DNA from: Minisyncoccota bacterium
GTDB lineage: Bacteria; Patescibacteriota; Minisyncoccia; Phycocordibacterales; JABAAK01
Assembly: GCA_965216295.1 (NCBI GenBank)
Contig: OZ244141.1
Coordinates: forward strand, 429,772-493,771
DNA: 64,000 nt
Reading direction: 5' to 3'
A program made the translations under genes and the position numbers. Each line of letters begins with the position of its first letter. Position 1 is the first letter of the stretch. Of the stretch, positions 54,775-63,826 are shown in pieces. The notes beneath the pieces are model-generated. The model was given only the letters and a program-made list of their open reading frames with translations, made no database searches and was not told the origin of the DNA.

Positions 54775-55521
54775 ATGACTACTAACCAAGAACAACATCC
54801 AATACGACAATTACAACAACGTGAGTGGCCACCGTTACTACGAGCTGACGCTGGTGTGGTTGATGCACCAAAACTATTGTACTGTCGTGGCACTACTCCA
54901 AACTGGAAAAGAAAACTGATTACGATTGTTGGGTCACGAAAGCATAGTGACTACGGTAAACGAGTATGTGAAAAAATAATTGCTGACCTCGCGCAATACC
55001 CGGTTACCATCGTCTCTGGATTAGCACTCGGCATTGATGCCATCGCACACCGCAGTGCATTACAAAACAACATACCAACAATTGGCGTTGTTGGCTCTGG
55101 ACTTGATACTCCCTCACTCTACCCAAAAACAAATACTCCGTTGGCACAAGAAATGCTTGAAACGGGTAACGCACTACTCTCAGAGTACGCAGCTGGCATG
55201 ACGGTAAAACCGTACACTTTTCCCAGAAGAAACAGAATCATGGCTGGTATGAGTGTTATAACGGTTGTTATTGAATGTACGTCTCAATCTGGAACACGCA
55301 TTACCGCACGACTTGCTTTAGAGTACGGGAGAGAGGTGTGTGCAGTACCGCATGATATTTTTTCTCGTGTTGGTTGTGGTACTAATATACTTCTCGGTGA
55401 AGGAGCACACGTTGTACAAAGTGGTCACGACATCGCTGAACTTATTGGTTTTGATAATGAGGAATCCGTTTCGTATGGAAAAAATGCATACAACAACAAG
55501 ACTACATACGACCGTAGATAA
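54775..55521 (+). CDS. dprA: DNA-processing protein DprA (Smf)
   Basis: ITIVGSRKHSDYGKRVCEKIIADLAQYPVTIVSGLALGIDAIAHRSAL, the Rossmann-like DprA core. Confidence 0.85.
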   Translation: MTTNQEQHPIRQLQQREWPPLLRADAGVVDAPKLLYCRGTTPNWKRKLITIVGSRKHSDYGKRVCEKIIADLAQYPVTIVSGLALGIDAIAHRSALQNNIPTIGVVGSGLDTPSLYPKTNTPLAQEMLETGNALLSEYAAGMTVKPYTFPRRNRIMAGMSVITVVIECTSQSGTRITARLALEYGREVCAVPHDIFSRVGCGTNILLGEGAHVVQSGHDIAELIGFDNEESVSYGKNAYNNKTTYDRR

Positions 55522-56044
55522 ATAGAGTAAGTGGTCGAAAGTACTCCTGACCGTCTTGCCAAGAAAGGCGGTAATACCCTTCTTCCTTTTCTGGATCATG
55601 AAGATACCACGCAGAAGGTGTCTGAGAAGAACCACTCTCATAACCAACAAGAACCAAGAGGTGTGTTCCTTGACGTGGTGGTCTATGTCGCACAGAGATA
55701 ATCACAGGAACACCAGTTGCTATCATTGTAGTCACCTTCTCTACCATTTCATCGCTCACCGAAGTAAAATCTTCTGCATAGCCAAAACAATTATGCGCAT
55801 GTGCAAGTGCCACCAACTGTTGGTGACGCCAGCCAACATTCTCTCTATACCCTTCTCTCTGCAATCCCTCTTCAATGAGTGCATCGGGTGTTGGTGTGTT
55901 TGTTTTTTGCCAGTACTGTATAACCATAGCAAGGGCGGTGATACCACAGGCACGAGACTGCCATTTTGAATTAGTCACATCACGGTACTGACAGAGATGT
56001 GGAACCCCTTGTATGATGTGCTGTTTTGCTATCTGACCTCCCAT
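55502..56044 (-). CDS. papain-fold cysteine peptidase, C39-like domain protein
   Basis: SNSKWQSRACGITALAMVIQYW carries the candidate catalytic Cys. A downstream His lies in HLLVLVGYE. The start overlaps the pheT stop by 16 nt. Confidence 0.45.
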   Translation of the reverse strand: MGGQIAKQHIIQGVPHLCQYRDVTNSKWQSRACGITALAMVIQYWQKTNTPTPDALIEEGLQREGYRENVGWRHQQLVALAHAHNCFGYAEDFTSVSDEMVEKVTTMIATGVPVIISVRHRPPRQGTHLLVLVGYESGSSQTPSAWYLHDPEKEEGYYRLSWQDGQEYFRPLTLFIYGRM

Positions 56045-58410
56045 GATTCTTTCTGTAACGCCTGAGTGACATGATCCATGACAACTGTCACCTCATCATC
56101 GGTTAATGTTTTATCATCTGATTGAAAAACGAGACGAAAGGCAAATGAAACTTTATCATCACGAGAGAAAACATCAAACAAGTTCCTTTGACGAAGGAGT
56201 GCTCCAGCGTTTTCATCAATACAACGACCAATGTCAGAAGCAGTTATGGTAGATGGCACAAACACCGATATATCACGCAAGACGAAAGGATATCGTGATG
56301 GTGCCCTGTACTGCACCCCTGCCACTGAAGGAAATGAGGTGTATGTTTCTTGAAGAGGTTTGTCAGCAATGCAGGGTGACAGAGCAACTTCCCACACACC
56401 ATCATTGAAACTACCTGGTAGTGTCACATCAAGAGTACTAAGTGCTACTCGTACCTCTTCTGCAATCTTCTCACTAACTACCTTTGGTCTTCCTGGGACA
56501 GATGCAATACCAAGTGCCAAGTGCACCTCCTCACCATCTTTTGAAAATACCGTGCCGAACTCAAAGAGACGCACCGCTTCACCACCGAGAAGTTCACCAT
56601 GTTGTGCGTTTCTATTCAGCGCCTCACGCAACCCATCAGCAAGAGTGCTACGCAAACACGCCTTATCCGCAGCGAGTGGGTAGGAAACACAGACATCAGA
56701 TTTTTTTTGAAATGTGTAGGTGACTACTTCAGAAAAACCAATAGCATTGAGTGCTTCAGTGATACGCCATTGGTGTGCAAGTTGCTGATGGATTGCCACT
56801 TTAGTGCGTGATTTTGGTTTTCGTGTCGGTACCGCATCGTAACCACTGATACGACCGACTTCTTCTACCAAATCAATCTTTCTGGCAATATCAATGCGTT
56901 CTACAGGAACCCGTACCACAATCCTATCCTCAGTATCGTGCCAAATTCGTCTGTACCCAACACAGGCTTCATGTTTTTGTAATCTTTGGAGTACTGCCTT
57001 CAGTGACTCTTCAACAACCATATTCTCTCCTGAAGAACCAACTGCGTGGATGATGGTCCCTGTGTCAGTCACGATGCCACAATGATTAATTCCACCCGGT
57101 ACTGTGCCAGGTGTGACAGGTGTCGCCGCTTCAAAAACACTTTCGGTGTATACCTTTGCACCAGAATCTAAAACAAAAAATACAAGATCACCACCCTCGA
57201 TATCTTCTTTCGCAACCTCTTCACCAGTTATATATTGATTTATAGAAATACGGGGTATGGTCTTCCCAGCGTGTGCTGCACAGTATGCGACAAAACCAGA
57301 ACAGTCAAAACACTCTGGTGCATCGCGAAGTATGGAAGCACCATAGCGATATGGTGTACCAATCTGTGTTCGCGCAACGTCAATCATTTCATCTTGTGGC
57401 GTAATAATAACACTGTGCTCTATTCCTAAACGAGAAAACACTGCAGTGACCTGTTGTTTTGTAAAATCCGTGCCAAGCACTGTGTTCACATCACTGGTTG
57501 CAATACCAAGTACCATCTGAGAACGTAATTTTTCTGCTCGATGTTCGTACGTCACCATACTCTTCCCTTCTGGAGCAATCATATCTGTCAAAAGAGTGAG
57601 TGCGTGGCGGAGCGTGTAATCAATCAATTCTGAGGGGTAGCCTTGTGAAAACCGAAGCGCTGCGTCAGTTACCAAATCTGTTCTTCGCATGGTGAGGCGG
57701 ATACGTTCGTGATTGAACGTTGCAGCCTCCAAAAGGATATTCTTTGTGTTCTCATCTACCATTGCAACCTTGCCACCCTTAATACCTCCTAAGGCAAGGA
57801 TGGTGTCATTGGCGGTATCGACGATAACAATATCACCCGCTTGGAGAGAAACTTTCTGTTCATCAATAGTGATGAACTGCTCACCATCTCGTGCTTCCCG
57901 CACCGCAAGACCTCCCTGTATTTTATCAGCATCAAAGACATGCATTGGATGGCCAATTTCAAAAAGAAGGTAATTAACAATATCAACTATGGGATGCACA
58001 CACCGTTTCCCAATCGCTTCAAGTCGACTGCGCATCCAAGGAGGTGTTGTGTCATATGTACAGTGCAATAGATGTGTGACGGTATATCTGGGACACAGAG
58101 ATGTTTTCACAACAATTCGTTTTACATCTTTTTGATATGGAATTGTGTTCTTTTGAGTAAAATGAGTTACCCGTAATGGCGCTGTACAAACAGCACTAAT
58201 CTCTTTTGCAACACCATAGTGAGAGAGGCAATCAACTGCCCTGTTTGGTAACACATCAAGTGTAAAAATAGTGTCAGATTTATCATCTGTTTGGTCTATG
58301 GATTCAACTTCAAGCGAGTGACGCAACAATTTCTCCCCCACCTCCTCTGGTGACGGCAATACATCTTCAAAAAAAGATTGCAACCATTCGTAGCTATACT
58401 TTCCTTTCAT
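56029..58410 (-). CDS. pheT: phenylalanyl-tRNA synthetase beta subunit with inserted NlpC/P60 domain
   Basis: B1, B3/4, B5, B6/7 and C-terminal FDX-ACB blocks are recognisable. Between RLGIEHSV and EDRIVVRVPVERIDI sits a ~160-aa insert with NlpC/P60 motifs (GTPYRYGA...FDCSGFV...HCGIV...IIHAV). Confidence 0.9.
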   Translation of the reverse strand: MKGKYSYEWLQSFFEDVLPSPEEVGEKLLRHSLEVESIDQTDDKSDTIFTLDVLPNRAVDCLSHYGVAKEISAVCTAPLRVTHFTQKNTIPYQKDVKRIVVKTSLCPRYTVTHLLHCTYDTTPPWMRSRLEAIGKRCVHPIVDIVNYLLFEIGHPMHVFDADKIQGGLAVREARDGEQFITIDEQKVSLQAGDIVIVDTANDTILALGGIKGGKVAMVDENTKNILLEAATFNHERIRLTMRRTDLVTDAALRFSQGYPSELIDYTLRHALTLLTDMIAPEGKSMVTYEHRAEKLRSQMVLGIATSDVNTVLGTDFTKQQVTAVFSRLGIEHSVIITPQDEMIDVARTQIGTPYRYGASILRDAPECFDCSGFVAYCAAHAGKTIPRISINQYITGEEVAKEDIEGGDLVFFVLDSGAKVYTESVFEAATPVTPGTVPGGINHCGIVTDTGTIIHAVGSSGENMVVEESLKAVLQRLQKHEACVGYRRIWHDTEDRIVVRVPVERIDIARKIDLVEEVGRISGYDAVPTRKPKSRTKVAIHQQLAHQWRITEALNAIGFSEVVTYTFQKKSDVCVSYPLAADKACLRSTLADGLREALNRNAQHGELLGGEAVRLFEFGTVFSKDGEEVHLALGIASVPGRPKVVSEKIAEEVRVALSTLDVTLPGSFNDGVWEVALSPCIADKPLQETYTSFPSVAGVQYRAPSRYPFVLRDISVFVPSTITASDIGRCIDENAGALLRQRNLFDVFSRDDKVSFAFRLVFQSDDKTLTDDEVTVVMDHVTQALQKESWEVR

Positions 58411-59144
58411 ACAAAAAACTGATTAACGAATCGTAAATCACCACTATAGAGGTGACGAATATCATCAATACCATGACGAAGTATAGCGACTCTATCAATC
58501 CCAATGCCAAAAGCAAATCCTTGATACATATTCGTATCTATACCAATCCGAGCAAGAACAAGTGGGTGCACCATGCCGCAGCCAAGTATCTCAATCCATT
58601 CAGAACTACCCTTTCGTTTCATATCAACCTCTAAACTAGGTTCAGTAAATGGGAAAAAACTTGGACGGTACCGTACATCAATGTCAGTACCAAAGAGTGC
58701 TGTGAGTAACTCATTGAGAAACCCTTTCATGTCAGAGAGTGTGATATCGGTGTCAACACACAACCCTTCTAATTGAAAAAATTGTGCTTCATGGGTCGCA
58801 TCTGTCGCTTCATTTCGAAATACTTTTCCAGGAGCAATAATACGAATCGGAGGTTTATGCTGTTCCATGAAACGAATTTGAACGGCAGAGGTGTGCGTGC
58901 GTAAGAGATTCTTCTTGCTCCCTCGTATCCAAAAAGTATCCCACATCTCACGAGCTGGATGACCTTTCGGTACATTGAGTGCATCAAAGTTATACCATTC
59001 AGTTTCTAACTCTGGGCCAGTCACCACTTTGTAACCCAAAGCACTACAAATCTGTACCATCTCATTGATAGTAGCAGTAGTGATGTGGGCACAACCAGCC
59101 CGCAATCCCTCCTTTTCATCATGTGCCCTCTGTGTGTGAACCAT
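58407..59144 (-). CDS. pheS: phenylalanyl-tRNA synthetase alpha subunit, catalytic core only
   Basis: Motif 2 FRNEATDATHEAQFFQLEG and motif 3 GFAFGIGIDRVAIL. 245 aa. A 4-nt overlap with pheT. Confidence 0.9.
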   Translation of the reverse strand: MVHTQRAHDEKEGLRAGCAHITTATINEMVQICSALGYKVVTGPELETEWYNFDALNVPKGHPAREMWDTFWIRGSKKNLLRTHTSAVQIRFMEQHKPPIRIIAPGKVFRNEATDATHEAQFFQLEGLCVDTDITLSDMKGFLNELLTALFGTDIDVRYRPSFFPFTEPSLEVDMKRKGSSEWIEILGCGMVHPLVLARIGIDTNMYQGFAFGIGIDRVAILRHGIDDIRHLYSGDLRFVNQFFV

Positions 59145-59225: not shown

Positions 59226-59774
59226 ATGAAGGATCACGCGACAACCGACAGCATTCTCGTTGTAGAAAACATTCGAAGCACCTTTAATGTTGGTGGCCTG
59301 TTCCGTCTTGCCGATGCTGTCGGTATAGCAAAAATTATACTCGTTGGATACACACCACAACCAACTGACCGTTTTGGAAGAAACAATGAGAAACTTGCAA
59401 AGACAGCGCTTGGTGCAGAACAAACAATCCCCTGTGAGCACAGCGATGATGTGGTGGCAACACTCAGCGCTCTCAAGAAAACACACACTATCATTGCCAT
59501 TGAACAAGGATCCAGTGCTCTATGCTACACAAAACACCACTACCACAAGAGTGCTCCCAACGTTTTTATCGTTGGTAATGAAGTAGATGGAGTGAGTAAC
59601 CAAGCTCAAGCTTTAGCAGATGTACAGGTGTACATTCCTATGTACGGAGAGAAAGAATCACTCAATCTCACCACTGCTGCAGCTATTGTCTTGTATCACG
59701 CACGAATGGCTGAGCCACCTGTCGGATTCGAACCGACGACCTATCCCTTACAAAGGGATTGCTCTACCAACTGA
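59226..59774 (+). CDS. SpoU/TrmH-family RNA 2'-O-methyltransferase
   Basis: SPOUT blocks VVENIRSTFNVGGLFRLADAVG and VFIVGNEVDGVS...ESLNLTTAAAIVLY. The last ~20 codons run antisense through tRNA-Thr. Confidence 0.75.
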   Translation: MKDHATTDSILVVENIRSTFNVGGLFRLADAVGIAKIILVGYTPQPTDRFGRNNEKLAKTALGAEQTIPCEHSDDVVATLSALKKTHTIIAIEQGSSALCYTKHHYHKSAPNVFIVGNEVDGVSNQAQALADVQVYIPMYGEKESLNLTTAAAIVLYHARMAEPPVGFEPTTYPLQRDCSTN

Positions 59775-59785
59775 GCTAAGGTGGC
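59713..59785 (-). tRNA. tRNA-Thr (anticodon TGT)
   Basis: Minus strand GCCACCT-UA-GCUC-AGUUGGUA-GAGC-A-AUCCC-UUUGUAA-GGGAU-AGGUC-GUCGG-UUCGAAU-CCGAC-AGGUGGC-U. No CCA encoded. Confidence 0.85.
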
Positions 59786-61671: not shown

Positions 61672-62811
61672 TCAGCTACTTCTTCTTTGAGAACGATAAC
61701 CCTTTGCGTAATTCTCTACTTTACGAAGATATGTCCACGCAACTGGAGTTTTGTACGATCTACCAGCGTGATATCGCCTAATCGCCTCAGAACGGTCTTT
61801 TTGAAACCCAAGATCTTGTAAGTAAAGAGCGATAAATGCAAAGGCGTCCAAAAGAACCCACGGATTTGATTTAGAACGATCGTTCAAAGCGACAAGGTTA
61901 TGTTTCTTCAAAAGTTGCATGATTCTGTCACGACTAGAATCGTAATACCAAGGACCTATGGAGAAGTGTAACTTATTAATCGCTCTACGTGTCTTATAAT
62001 TTAATACACCATCTGCGTGTAATGAAAAAGATTTTTGAAACTTCTTCAATGCATTCTTTGTTGCTGGACCAAAACTATTCGTCTCGTTACCGGGACTACC
62101 GTTTTTAGATTGAGCAACAAGAAAACCAATTTGGTTTAAAAACCTCTGCAGGTTTTTCACCTCATCATGGTTATCATTCAGAGATAGGTTTCTCGTGAGA
62201 AGTACCGTGTCCATCTTACAACTTTCTGTAAGAGTATTGATAAATCCGCCGTAACAAACCCATGTTGATGGTAGTACCTGTGCAATACCCATAGCACCAC
62301 CCCAACCATTTCCGTTGTGTCTGGGTGAAACACCCACACTCTCTGGTTTTTTTTTCAGAATGCTTGCAGTAAGTTGTGGAAATATCCGCTGATCACGCAT
62401 TGGATGCATATGACCAATGTAATATTCATCACCAGTATTATTACCGAAGTTTGACTCAATTGCTATTGTACTGATTAAAATTGCATGATCAACGCCAGTT
62501 ATACGTTCTACGTACCTAGCATACTCATCAGCAACTTCTTCTATAACTATAACCTTGCCAGTTATATGTTCTACGTACCCAGCATACTCATCAACAACTC
62601 CTTCTGTAACTTTTACACGATTGTCGTCATCGTCATTCTTTAATTCATCACCTACCGCAAAAGAAGTGGTTGGTGTGGGTATAAAAAATAATGACAGAAC
62701 CATTGCAAACCCAAAACAGGCTACAACAACTCCTTTCAGTGTAAAATTCATCACTAAAAACTTTTTTTGTTCAGGCGGTGATGATATATCCTGATGCATA
62801 TTTTGTAACAT
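61672..62811 (-). CDS. lytic murein transglycosylase (MltB/SLT_2-like) with PG_binding_1 domain
   Basis: N-terminal TM. GWGGAMGIAQVLPSTW matches the MltB-type motif. The C-terminal LQRFLNQIGF...ADGVLNYKTRRAI is a peptidoglycan-binding repeat. Confidence 0.65.
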   Translation of the reverse strand: MLQNMHQDISSPPEQKKFLVMNFTLKGVVVACFGFAMVLSLFFIPTPTTSFAVGDELKNDDDDNRVKVTEGVVDEYAGYVEHITGKVIVIEEVADEYARYVERITGVDHAILISTIAIESNFGNNTGDEYYIGHMHPMRDQRIFPQLTASILKKKPESVGVSPRHNGNGWGGAMGIAQVLPSTWVCYGGFINTLTESCKMDTVLLTRNLSLNDNHDEVKNLQRFLNQIGFLVAQSKNGSPGNETNSFGPATKNALKKFQKSFSLHADGVLNYKTRRAINKLHFSIGPWYYDSSRDRIMQLLKKHNLVALNDRSKSNPWVLLDAFAFIALYLQDLGFQKDRSEAIRRYHAGRSYKTPVAWTYLRKVENYAKGYRSQRRSS

Positions 62812-63037: not shown

Positions 63038-63826
63038 TCATCCATGACATGAATTGAGCATATTCAACGTATTCAAATCAAGAACTCCGGAAAGATTATT
63101 GAGACCTATCCTTCTTTGAAACTGAATCAACGCTCCTTTTGTTTGAGGTCCAGCTATTCCATCAGCAGAAATATTCCTCCCTAAACATAAATTTAATGCT
63201 CGTTGCAACACAACCACCGATTCACTATAGGGACGGTGATTATCAAAACCATCAAATCTCAATGGACCACCAATATGAAGATTGCCGAGGTATATAATGT
63301 CTTTATTCAACAACATATTAGGAAAAATCCGGTGTTGTTCGACAAGTTTTCTAGCGTATCCTGTGTCTGTCCACATCAATGATGTCCACAGTGTTGCACA
63401 TTCCTCACTTCGAAAATTAAACGACATGTCTTCAAAAATGCAATAATCTATTGTATTCTTGTCATCATTTCGGTAGCGCTGAACAAAACCTGTAACAATC
63501 GTACGATACGAATCATTACAGTATTGACCAAGCACATAACGACAGATATCCTCTACCGCTATCTGATCATTCGGTTCAGTATTGAGTATATCCTCAACAG
63601 TGAGAATGAGAGATCTGTTACTAACCCATATGGGACGTGTTTGGTGTGCCTTCTCATCAGTATCTGAGAAAAGACCGATTAAATCAGTAGACACATCAAC
63701 ATTTCGAATAGACATTGCATATGAGAAAAACAAAACACCCATCATCATAATAATGATTTCTGGTGCGTTGTTAGAAAAAAAATTTCTCAATAGAGAGAAA
63801 TACTGATTTTTGTTTTTGAAAAGCAT
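63038..63826 (-). CDS. TM-anchored protein with C-terminal peptidoglycan-binding (PG_binding_1) domain
   Basis: VVLQRALNLCLGRNISADGIAGPQTKGALIQFQRRIG is PG_binding_1. The N-terminal domain is unassigned. Confidence 0.5.
   Translation of the reverse strand: MLFKNKNQYFSLLRNFFSNNAPEIIIMMMGVLFFSYAMSIRNVDVSTDLIGLFSDTDEKAHQTRPIWVSNRSLILTVEDILNTEPNDQIAVEDICRYVLGQYCNDSYRTIVTGFVQRYRNDDKNTIDYCIFEDMSFNFRSEECATLWTSLMWTDTGYARKLVEQHRIFPNMLLNKDIIYLGNLHIGGPLRFDGFDNHRPYSESVVVLQRALNLCLGRNISADGIAGPQTKGALIQFQRRIGLNNLSGVLDLNTLNMLNSCHG

Follow-up and report, generated by a model that had tools for sequence, protein, structure and literature searches.

Aminoacyl-tRNA synthetases are known for acquiring extra domains, whether appended or inserted. 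In bacterial phenylalanyl-tRNA synthetase (PheRS), the canonical beta subunit PheT (T. thermophilus 1PYS, E. coli 3PCO, M. tuberculosis 7K98) has the domain order B1, B3/4, B5, catalytic-like module (CLM) and FDX-ACB. In other synthetases, a hydrolase is nested in the polypeptide, as with CP1 in LeuRS, IleRS and ValRS and INS in ProRS, giving one chain with two catalytic centres, and such inserted hydrolase domains are recognised as a class (PMC13114784). Herein, we analysed a stretch of 64,000 nucleotides (nt; the window) from a Minisyncoccota bacterium (assembly GCA_965216295.1, contig OZ244141.1, positions 429,772 to 493,771), in which pheT keeps the canonical order and carries a complete P60-type NlpC/P60 (C40) cysteine peptidase domain nested inside B5. 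Like CP1 and INS, it is a hydrolase-type domain within a synthetase. However, CP1 and INS are synthetase-specific folds acting on aminoacyl-tRNA, whereas the PheT insert is a cell-wall-type papain-fold cysteine peptidase that has a peptidase partner gene and survives separately when PheT is lost.

The nearest solved structures of the insert are all peptidoglycan DL-endopeptidases. The described P60-type enzymes, namely Acd24020 (7CFL) and CdCwlT33800 (9UBF) of C. difficile, MepS/Spr, CwlO, LytE and the cytoplasmic YkfC (3H41), share its fold and its Cys-His-His triad, and the insert also has their PY.Y, DCS and PR motifs and the C-terminal RR motif. Unlike these enzymes, it has neither a signal peptide nor a cell-wall-binding domain and lies inside a cytoplasmic synthetase. 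It further differs by a 4-amino-acid (aa) insertion before DAP..FDCS and by an extension of 17-25 aa in the peptidase B4-B5 loop.

The domain was recognised by Pfam NLPC_P60 at aa 351-414 (E 8.9e-13, 48.6 bits against a gathering threshold of 23) and by a series of NCBIfam models of NlpC/P60 peptidoglycan hydrolases at aa 341-418. Multiple alignment of PheT orthologues mapped its boundaries: against insert-less Patescibacteria PheTs, one clean gap covered exactly aa 335-493, and in the window PheT and ten relatives the extra block stands between ...RLGIEHSV (aa 327-334) and (E)DRIVVRVPVERIDI. The residues directly after the insert, aa 494-508, are EDRIVVRVPVERIDI. In the intact protein, Pfam matched only the C-terminal part of B5; when aa 335-493 were removed in silico, a contiguous B5 match was restored (profile positions 5-67 of 67, 57.6 bits, from aa 305). 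In the AlphaFold2 model of the full protein (predicted local distance difference test score, pLDDT, 91.7; predicted template-modelling score, pTM, 0.79), B5 comprises a strand at aa 300-303, helices at 305-312 and 318-327 and a strand at 331-335, followed after the insert by a strand at 496-500 and a helix at 511-522, indicating that the domain is placed at the tip of the B5 beta-hairpin. The original prediction, made from the letters of the window, had put an in-frame NlpC/P60 insertion with its full signature and catalytic Cys and His into the B5 region of PheT at 56932-57411, which corresponds to aa 334-493. The clean gap, the restored B5 match and the full-length model agree with the insertion, and the Pfam match, the motif positions, the conservation and the fold match agree with a full signature including a Cys/His/His triad. 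All of the motifs that it quoted were found at their places (GTPYRYGA, aa 351-358; FDCSGFV, 368-374; HCGIV, 443-447; IIHAV, 453-457), and its alternative, a normal B5 subdomain without the triad, is excluded. The C39-like partner gene, the stand-alone derivatives of the module and the breadth of the distribution, all described below, were not part of the original prediction.

Modelled alone by AlphaFold2 (pLDDT 89, pTM 0.87), the insert has a papain-like alpha+beta fold. Foldseek matched it to 7CFL, 8ER5 and 9UBF with a probability of 1.00 and target-normalised template-modelling (TM) scores of 0.85-0.91, and across the solved DL-endopeptidases 7CFL, 9UBF, MepS, CwlO and LytE the scores were 0.75-0.91. 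A profile of ten inserts, searched against PDB sequences, retrieved 39 solved NlpC/P60 chains, of which 7CFL was the best (E 3e-27). The segment specific to this clade (aa 412-440) includes profile positions 83-99, which have no counterpart in 7CFL, and its pLDDT rose from 62-64 in the model of the insert alone to 77-83 in the full-length model. The nearest free-standing sequences are at most 36-47% identical to the insert, are small, carry a signal peptide or a lipoprotein signal, and do not have the ~20-residue segment that here separates GDLVFF from the catalytic His. Searches by sequence and by fold with the insert as query returned only NlpC/P60 peptidases and no known editing fold (CP1, INS/YbaK, B3/4, AlaX or DTD), and PADLOC assigned none of the insert, the C39-like partner, the stand-alone module and the fusion described below to a defence system.

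The remaining parts of PheT are those of a synthetase subunit (Table 1). B5, CLM and the C-terminal FDX-ACB follow one another as expected, and Foldseek with the full model returned bacterial PheT chains (E 1e-45 to 1e-48). As in canonical PheT, the gene directly follows pheS and the editing-site and B5 acidic residues are conserved. Pro502, Arg505, Asp507, Asp513, Glu516, Glu517 and Arg520 of the C-terminal half of B5 are invariant in the PheT alignment. The B3/4 positions that we take to form the editing site, on the basis of work on E. coli and T. thermophilus, are apparently intact when aligned to P. aeruginosa and A. baumannii PheT: His157 (in GHPMHVFD), Glu228 and, just downstream, Thr248/Ala250. 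Across 88 PheTs, His157 was invariant and Glu228 nearly so, indicating that the nested domain is no replacement for editing. In the M. tuberculosis PheRS-tRNA complex, a small alpha/beta subdomain (beta1s4) before the linker to the catalytic-like module touches the aminoacylation domain of alpha via a conserved Mg2+ (PMC8136816); we equated beta1s4 with B5.

In contrast to canonical PheRS, B2 is missing. The window PheT has no Pfam match to tRNA_bind (PF01588), and its residues 45-334 align to approximately 154-438 of canonical PheT, consistent with the absence of B2 that the original prediction had reported. B2 is also missing from many short Patescibacteria PheTs and thus is not universal in PheT; it is present in one relative (P0035). 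The TIGR00472 (pheT_bact) score of 376.6 bits is below the cut-off of 402.65 because B2 is missing and B5 is split. The PheS of the window is likewise reduced to the catalytic core, without the N-terminal coiled coil with which PheS of other bacteria binds tRNA. The pheS stop and the pheT start overlap by 4 nt, as in a single operon, and the two genes are adjacent in most related loci. There is no second pheT within the 64-kb window, and we take the pair to be the organism's housekeeping, minimal PheRS.

Table 1. Coordinates of the PheRS genes, their domains, the nested peptidase and the partner gene (positions in the window)
Feature	Position	Strand	Basis
pheS, short PheRS alpha (245 aa)	58407..59144	-	Pfam tRNA-synt_2d E 1.9e-96; TIGR00468 312 bits, cut-off 237
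pheT, PheRS beta (793 aa), with nested NlpC/P60 and without B2	56029..58410	-	Pfam B3_4, B5, CLM, FDX-ACB, NLPC_P60
B3/4 editing domain, aa 106-277	57580..58095	-	Pfam B3_4 E 1.2e-49
B5 N-terminal half, aa ~298-334, strand-two helices-strand 331-335 ending RLGIEHSV	57409..57519	-	Secondary structure of the full model
NlpC/P60 (C40) cysteine peptidase insert, 159 aa, aa 335-493	56932..57408	-	Pfam NLPC_P60 and clean alignment gap
Catalytic Cys370 codon (FDCSG)	57301..57303	-	Aligns with the catalytic Cys of 7CFL
Segment peculiar to the clade, aa 412-440, linking the GDLVFF strand with the His443 strand	57091..57177	-	Missing from free-standing relatives
Catalytic His443 codon (INHCGIV)	57082..57084	-	Codon checked; aligns with 7CFL catalytic residue
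Third triad residue, His455 codon (IIHAV)	57046..57048	-	Codon checked; aligns with 7CFL catalytic residue
B5 C-terminal half, aa 494-524: strand 496-500 (RIVVRV), PVERIDI, acidic DLVEEVGR helix	56839..56931	-	Model, strand 496-500 and helix 511-522
Catalytic-like module CLM (B6/B7), aa 528-634	56509..56829	-	Pfam tRNA_synthFbeta E 5.6e-12
FDX-ACB anticodon-binding domain (B8), aa 705-788	56047..56298	-	Pfam FDX-ACB E 2.3e-20
Peptidase_C39_2-like cysteine peptidase, 180 aa, leaderless/cytoplasmic	55502..56044	-	Pfam Peptidase_C39_2 E 1.6e-14, 55.2 bits, threshold 24

When 1.84 billion cluster representatives were searched exhaustively with a profile, 189 matches fell below 1e-30. Pooling the profile-search matches with the relatives from a full-length query yielded 108 full-length PheTs, mostly representatives of 50%-identity clusters, with the domain at approximately aa 330-490. 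A query of a 5.8-billion-protein set with the insert alone returned only free-standing secreted NlpC/P60 proteins, a result bounded by the word index, which missed even the window's own protein; the family was recovered by the full-length query and the exhaustive profile search, and not by this one. A scan of GTDB species representatives revealed 36 loci in which the PheT N-terminal part, the insert and the PheT C-terminal part are colinear. They are recorded as Paceibacterota, Lloyd-, Campbell- and Yonathbacteria (in NCBI, the Parcubacteria group of Patescibacteria), and the complete Campbellbacteria genome CP011215 is among them. The protein of the window is on record in identical form from NCBI and ENA, on a 512-kb contig, and the 90% cluster of one relative holds 16 near-identical members, whose contigs are separate and reach 930 kb. 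The worry that a chimeric assembly had produced the architecture was thus answered by comparison, not coverage, as the architecture recurs in 108 proteins and 36 loci.

In a neighbour-joining tree of the flanks, all 106 insert-bearing and 11 insert-less short PheTs formed one clade, apart from 99 others; the internal branches are very short, and the tree supports one clade and at least one loss but gives no count of losses. The insert-less P0036 was nearest to the insert-bearing P0309 (distance 0.54 versus at least 0.85 for others), which indicates at least one clean secondary loss. P0036 is a 630-aa PheT (locus L086, 4001-5893) that keeps the spoU-pheS-pheT synteny of the window; L086 has neither the insert nor the C39-like gene and looks like a clean secondary loss of both. 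A history of this kind would involve a single acquisition of the insert near the base of a large Parcubacteria-group clade and vertical inheritance with pheT since then, with occasional clean losses.

The mean pairwise identity was 41.8% for the insert and 40.5% for the rest of PheT, and the divergences of insert and flanks were correlated (r 0.53), as would be expected if the insert were under the same purifying selection as the synthetase. Among 115 nested inserts, Cys370 was retained in 113 (98%), His443 in 111 (96%) and His455 in 107 (93%). Tyr354, Asp363-Ala-Pro365, Phe368, Asp369, Ser371, Pro386, Arg387, Gln392, Gly407, Asp408 and Phe411 were conserved as well. We regard it as almost certain that the insert is real and conserved. 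The original prediction had suggested that the insert would add a potential peptidase/amidase or acyltransferase-like activity to the synthetase, a suggestion strengthened by the conservation of the triad, and very probably the domain is catalytically active, with competence provided by Cys370-His443-His455. In P0037, on a 4.4-kb ENA contig, Tyr replaces the catalytic His443 (GVDYSAIY), representing either a sequencing error or an inactive lineage.

Immediately downstream of pheT, with an overlap of 16 nt between its start and the pheT stop, lies a gene for a C39-like cysteine peptidase. The protein has the catalytic set Gln19, Cys33, His128 and Asp150 and an HDP motif; among 22 homologues, Gln19, Cys33 and His128 were invariant and no signal peptide was found. 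Of 36 loci with sufficient sequence, 18 had the gene at most 300 nt downstream of an insert-bearing pheT, and 20 had it somewhere in the locus, whereas it was absent next to three insert-less pheT genes. In a reverse search with the C39-like profile, 40 of 51 metagenomic loci had an NlpC/P60 domain at most 3.5 kb upstream. In addition, the 397-aa protein P0280 (L089, 5001-6194) is a fusion of the module in which NlpC/P60 is nested in B5 (B5::NlpC/P60) with a C39_2-like domain. These data suggest that the insert is probably coupled in function to the C39-like enzyme. In the subgroup of P0280 and P0302, FDCS is changed to FSCS and IPR to MPS, and the canonical Asp-Arg salt bridge is lost.

A profile search of PDB sequences for the C39-like protein gave only 3ERV of B. 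anthracis, a protein of unknown function, as its best solved relative. Published work lists Peptidase_C39_2 among the catalytic domains of endolysins and reports a match of a mycobacteriophage LysA domain to 3ERV (PMC8223927, PMC3314691). Both partners therefore come from families whose known members cut peptidoglycan peptides. The window gene passes the Pfam threshold and keeps the Gln-Cys-His-Asp set of this family (3ERV, the endolysin domains and mycobacteriophage LysA N5); unlike these, proteins of the window type are single-domain and leaderless, and adjoin or are fused to B5::NlpC/P60. In seven loci (L096, L119, L134, L135, L142, L016 and L004), unrelated accessory genes stand between pheT and the C39-like gene, including Y1-transposase-like, Nudix, Fic/RhuM and small toxin-antitoxin-like genes and a secreted protein, which suggests that the junction is a recurrent insertion site. 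In another assembly of almost the same sequence, from a near-identical strain (proteins P0311 and P0313, 46-kb ENA contig), the PheT C-terminus continues into the start of the C39-like open reading frame (ORF; …TQALQKRIMGGQIAKQ…), and an internal Met was taken as the start of the C39-like gene. These features most likely reflect indel errors of that assembly, enabled by the 16-nt overlap.

The module also exists without the rest of PheT. In Parcubacteria bacterium C7867-005 (L018, 2769-4594), a 382-aa protein combines the PheS core with FDX-ACB, as in the mitochondrial-type architecture, and the next gene, overlapping by 4 nt, encodes a 226-aa protein that consists only of the B5 halves and NlpC/P60 and corresponds to residues 325-516 of PheT from the window (34% identity, E 2e-34). 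Stand-alone cluster representatives of 199-233 aa were P0168, P0170, P0213, P0218, P0264, P0275 and P0302; when the peptidase was removed from P0168, its B5 match was above threshold. The gene order PheS+FDX-ACB, B5::NlpC/P60 and C39_2 was found in L092 (2853-5285), L167 and L169, while L091 and L093 have B5::NlpC/P60 followed by C39_2 and no pheS nearby. In the tightly packed L160 (819-4070), the order is a 156-aa NlpC/P60 protein without B5 halves, PheS+FDX-ACB, a D-Ala-D-Ala ligase and C39_2. The ligase was considered as a regular member of the unit and rejected, as it occurs in only three loci (in L160, and near the unit in L168 and L022).

Mitochondrial-type PheRS (TIGR00469) and the NCBIfam 'PheS-related mystery ligase SrmL' have the same two domains as the 382-410 aa genes of L018, L092 and L160. 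This form does not occur in the window, and genes of the L018 type score just below both curated cut-offs (249 versus 258 for pheS_mito and 261 versus 300 for SrmL). In L018, L092, L167 and L169, B5::NlpC/P60 is the only part of PheT seen within the locus sequence alongside PheS+FDX-ACB. By sequence, the stand-alone proteins are thus apparently what remains of PheT where a gene for PheS with an anticodon-binding domain is present, and the retention of the module with its C39-like partner and without the rest of PheT indicates that its function is independent of the remaining PheT.

With regard to the substrate, Tyr229, Tyr231, Asp241, Ser243 and Arg259 of CdCwlT33800 (9UBF) touch L-Ala-gamma-D-Glu, and their mutation lowers activity; the Asp241-Arg259 salt bridge is critical, and a mobile B4-B5 loop forms the opposite wall of the groove (PMC12542765). 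Their equivalents in the insert, through the PY.Y, DCS and PR motifs, are Tyr354, Tyr356, Asp369, Ser371 and Arg387, as read from the alignment of the insert profile to 7CFL and not from a direct alignment to 9UBF. Tyr354, Asp369, Ser371 and Arg387 are kept in 91-96% of the inserts, and position 356 is mostly aromatic or hydrophobic. The clade-specific extension of 17-25 aa, within aa 412-440, occupies the position of the B4-B5 loop on the leaving-group side. From these residues we infer that the insert may still recognise an acyl side of the gamma-D-glutamyl type, with the leaving-group side rebuilt; such a site is consistent with soluble cytoplasmic peptides rather than the cross-linked sacculus. 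Two PG_binding_1 genes, at 61672-62811 (-) and 63038-63826 (-), one of which has an SLT-type transglycosylase domain, indicate that the organism has peptidoglycan-active proteins, and secreted proteins related to peptidoglycan are encoded nearby.

The best explanation as a whole is that the insert is an active peptidase module of the gamma-D-glutamyl type that works with the C39-like partner and is carried by PheRS, to which we assign a probability of about 0.5. The domain would be a cytoplasmic amidase cutting after a gamma-D-glutamyl-type residue in soluble stem-peptide-like substrates, with muropeptides or peptidoglycan-precursor peptides as candidates, and would act jointly with the Peptidase_C39_2-like peptidase encoded immediately downstream. 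PheRS beta would mainly be a carrier, with aminoacylation and B3/4 editing unchanged. These parts are not equally firm: the architecture, its distribution, the conserved triad, the gene linkage and the fusion are observed directly, activity and coupling to the C39-like enzyme have the strengths given above, the gamma-D-Glu or stem-peptide substrate class is tentative, while independence from aminoacylation is moderately favoured.

Several observations weigh against this explanation. The close free-standing relatives are all secreted proteins or lipoproteins, which makes a cytoplasmic stem-peptide substrate an assumption, and with a remodelled B4-B5 loop the substrate could be unrelated to peptidoglycan. 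The module stays near a PheRS gene after the PheRS architecture has changed and with a variable gene order (L158, L160); this persistent vicinity may reflect a PheRS-related function rather than mere carriage, although conserved synteny around gyrB and dnaX can account for it as well. Most stand-alone forms retain B5, which is not explained if B5 is only a carrier. At least 11 insert-less relatives do without the domain, and a few members, such as P0037, have lost a triad residue. For the C39-like partner, the patterns of the reverse search were taken from pheT-adjacent C39 genes, an ascertainment bias, and the contrast with insert-less pheT genes is drawn from only three loci.

Other readings of the same locus were weighed against these data. 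An artefactual or selfish origin of the segment, through chimeric assembly, as an intein or by recent insertion of a mobile element, has nothing for it beyond the unusual architecture, and its probability is negligible. These junctions recur in over 100 diverged proteins that come from independent projects, the guanine-plus-cytosine content of the insert (0.45-0.46) is like that of its flanks (0.43-0.47), no direct repeats flank it, and it co-diverges with its host gene. An intein would likewise place ~160 aa in frame in a conserved housekeeping protein, but this insert is a folded enzyme domain without a Hint fold; Pfam found no Hint or endonuclease domain in it, and it begins with IITPQ and ends with WHDT, followed by Glu, without the N-terminal Cys/Ser and C-terminal His-Asn of inteins. 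The original prediction had reached the same view on inteins from the termini, and the comparative data already refute the artefact, intein and mobile-element readings together. It is very improbable that the domain is a pseudo-enzyme comparable to RipD, with a structural or binding role and no catalysis, which persists because clean excision from an essential gene is difficult. Non-catalytic NlpC/P60 domains do exist (RipD, 4JXB, is among the fold matches), a triad residue is lost in 2-8 of the 115 inserts, including the His-to-Tyr change of P0037, and insert-less relatives are viable. However, the triad is present in 93-98% of these 115 diverged sequences and the four substrate-side residues in 91-96%, the insert is slightly more conserved than the remaining PheT, and the module is kept when other parts of PheT are lost; the clean loss in P0036 relative to P0309 further argues that the insert is not trapped.

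We consider it unlikely that the module and the C39-like enzyme are proteases directed at proteins, acting in maturation, regulatory cleavage or on isopeptide-linked conjugates, rather than small-peptide amidases. C39 peptidases proper cleave leader peptides, and here both enzymes have the papain fold of cysteine peptidases, keep their catalytic residues and lack an export signal. The window protein also has weaker matches to AvrRpt2 (C70) and to an ACTMAP-like family, and the enlarged B4-B5 loop could offer a new protein-binding surface. On the other hand, the acyl-side residues specific for L-Ala-gamma-D-Glu are retained, the nearest structures are those of peptidoglycan enzymes, and no conserved candidate substrate gene was found in the neighbourhood. 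A role on the products of the synthetase itself appears quite unlikely: the nested Cys hydrolase would deacylate mis-acylated or N-blocked aminoacyl-tRNA(Phe), adding a second editing activity, or capture Phe from phenylalanyl-adenylate (Phe-AMP) or Phe-tRNA as a thioester and transfer it to an acceptor in the manner of LRAT. Ester-to-thioester chemistry is known in the NlpC/P60 superfamily from LRAT, and weak LRAT profile matches were obtained, but they are below their cut-offs. The contact of B5 with the alpha catalytic domain (PMC8136816) would bring the insert near the aminoacylation module, and the stand-alone module lies beside PheS+FDX-ACB genes without B3/4 (L018, L092, L167, L169, L160), with B5 retained in most such forms. 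Yet several of them have a degenerate form of the Mg2+-binding EE motif in B5, and the pair of NlpC/P60 and C39 also occurs away from any pheS (L089, L091, L093). Moreover, the intact B3/4 residues of insert-bearing PheTs leave no editing gap, the substrate-side residues that are kept are those by which true DL-endopeptidases bind L-Ala-gamma-D-Glu, and the constant partner comes from a peptidase family known in endolysins. In a more elaborate form, which we regard as a long shot, the domain would be a catalytic centre of a new kind within the synthetase: Cys370 would form a thioester with a phenylalanyl or mis-activated group from Phe-tRNA(Phe) or Phe-AMP, followed either by hydrolysis, amounting to cysteine-based editing, or by transfer to an amine acceptor, for example the stem peptide of peptidoglycan, with the product processed by the C39-like enzyme. 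If true, PheRS of Parcubacteria would be tied directly to the chemistry of the cell wall or of peptides.

In a literature search on NlpC/P60 with PheRS, domain insertions in Patescibacteria synthetases and Parcubacteria PheRS, no paper on the nested architecture was found; its only traces are automated domain annotations and the NCBI name 'beta subunit-related protein'. Nor did we find a description of a cell-wall-type cysteine peptidase within a synthetase whose active site is intact across a class-level radiation of ultra-small bacteria. If active, the insert would be a second, chemically unrelated catalytic centre of PheRS and, together with the C39-like neighbour, would form a conserved cytoplasmic two-peptidase system in organisms unable to make most building blocks. 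Such a system bears on how Parcubacteria get or recycle peptidoglycan components. The stand-alone B5::NlpC/P60 proteins resemble a snapshot of gene reduction and offer natural constructs for the function of the module, and pheT genes that score below the cut-off could bias estimates of completeness and the use of marker genes for genomes of candidate phyla. Elsewhere in the window, the ORF of the SpoU methylase (182 aa, +, 59226-59785) runs ~60 nt into tRNA-Thr(TGT) on the opposite strand (59712-59785); its Pfam match ends at aa 157, and the listed ORF end may overshoot the real gene.

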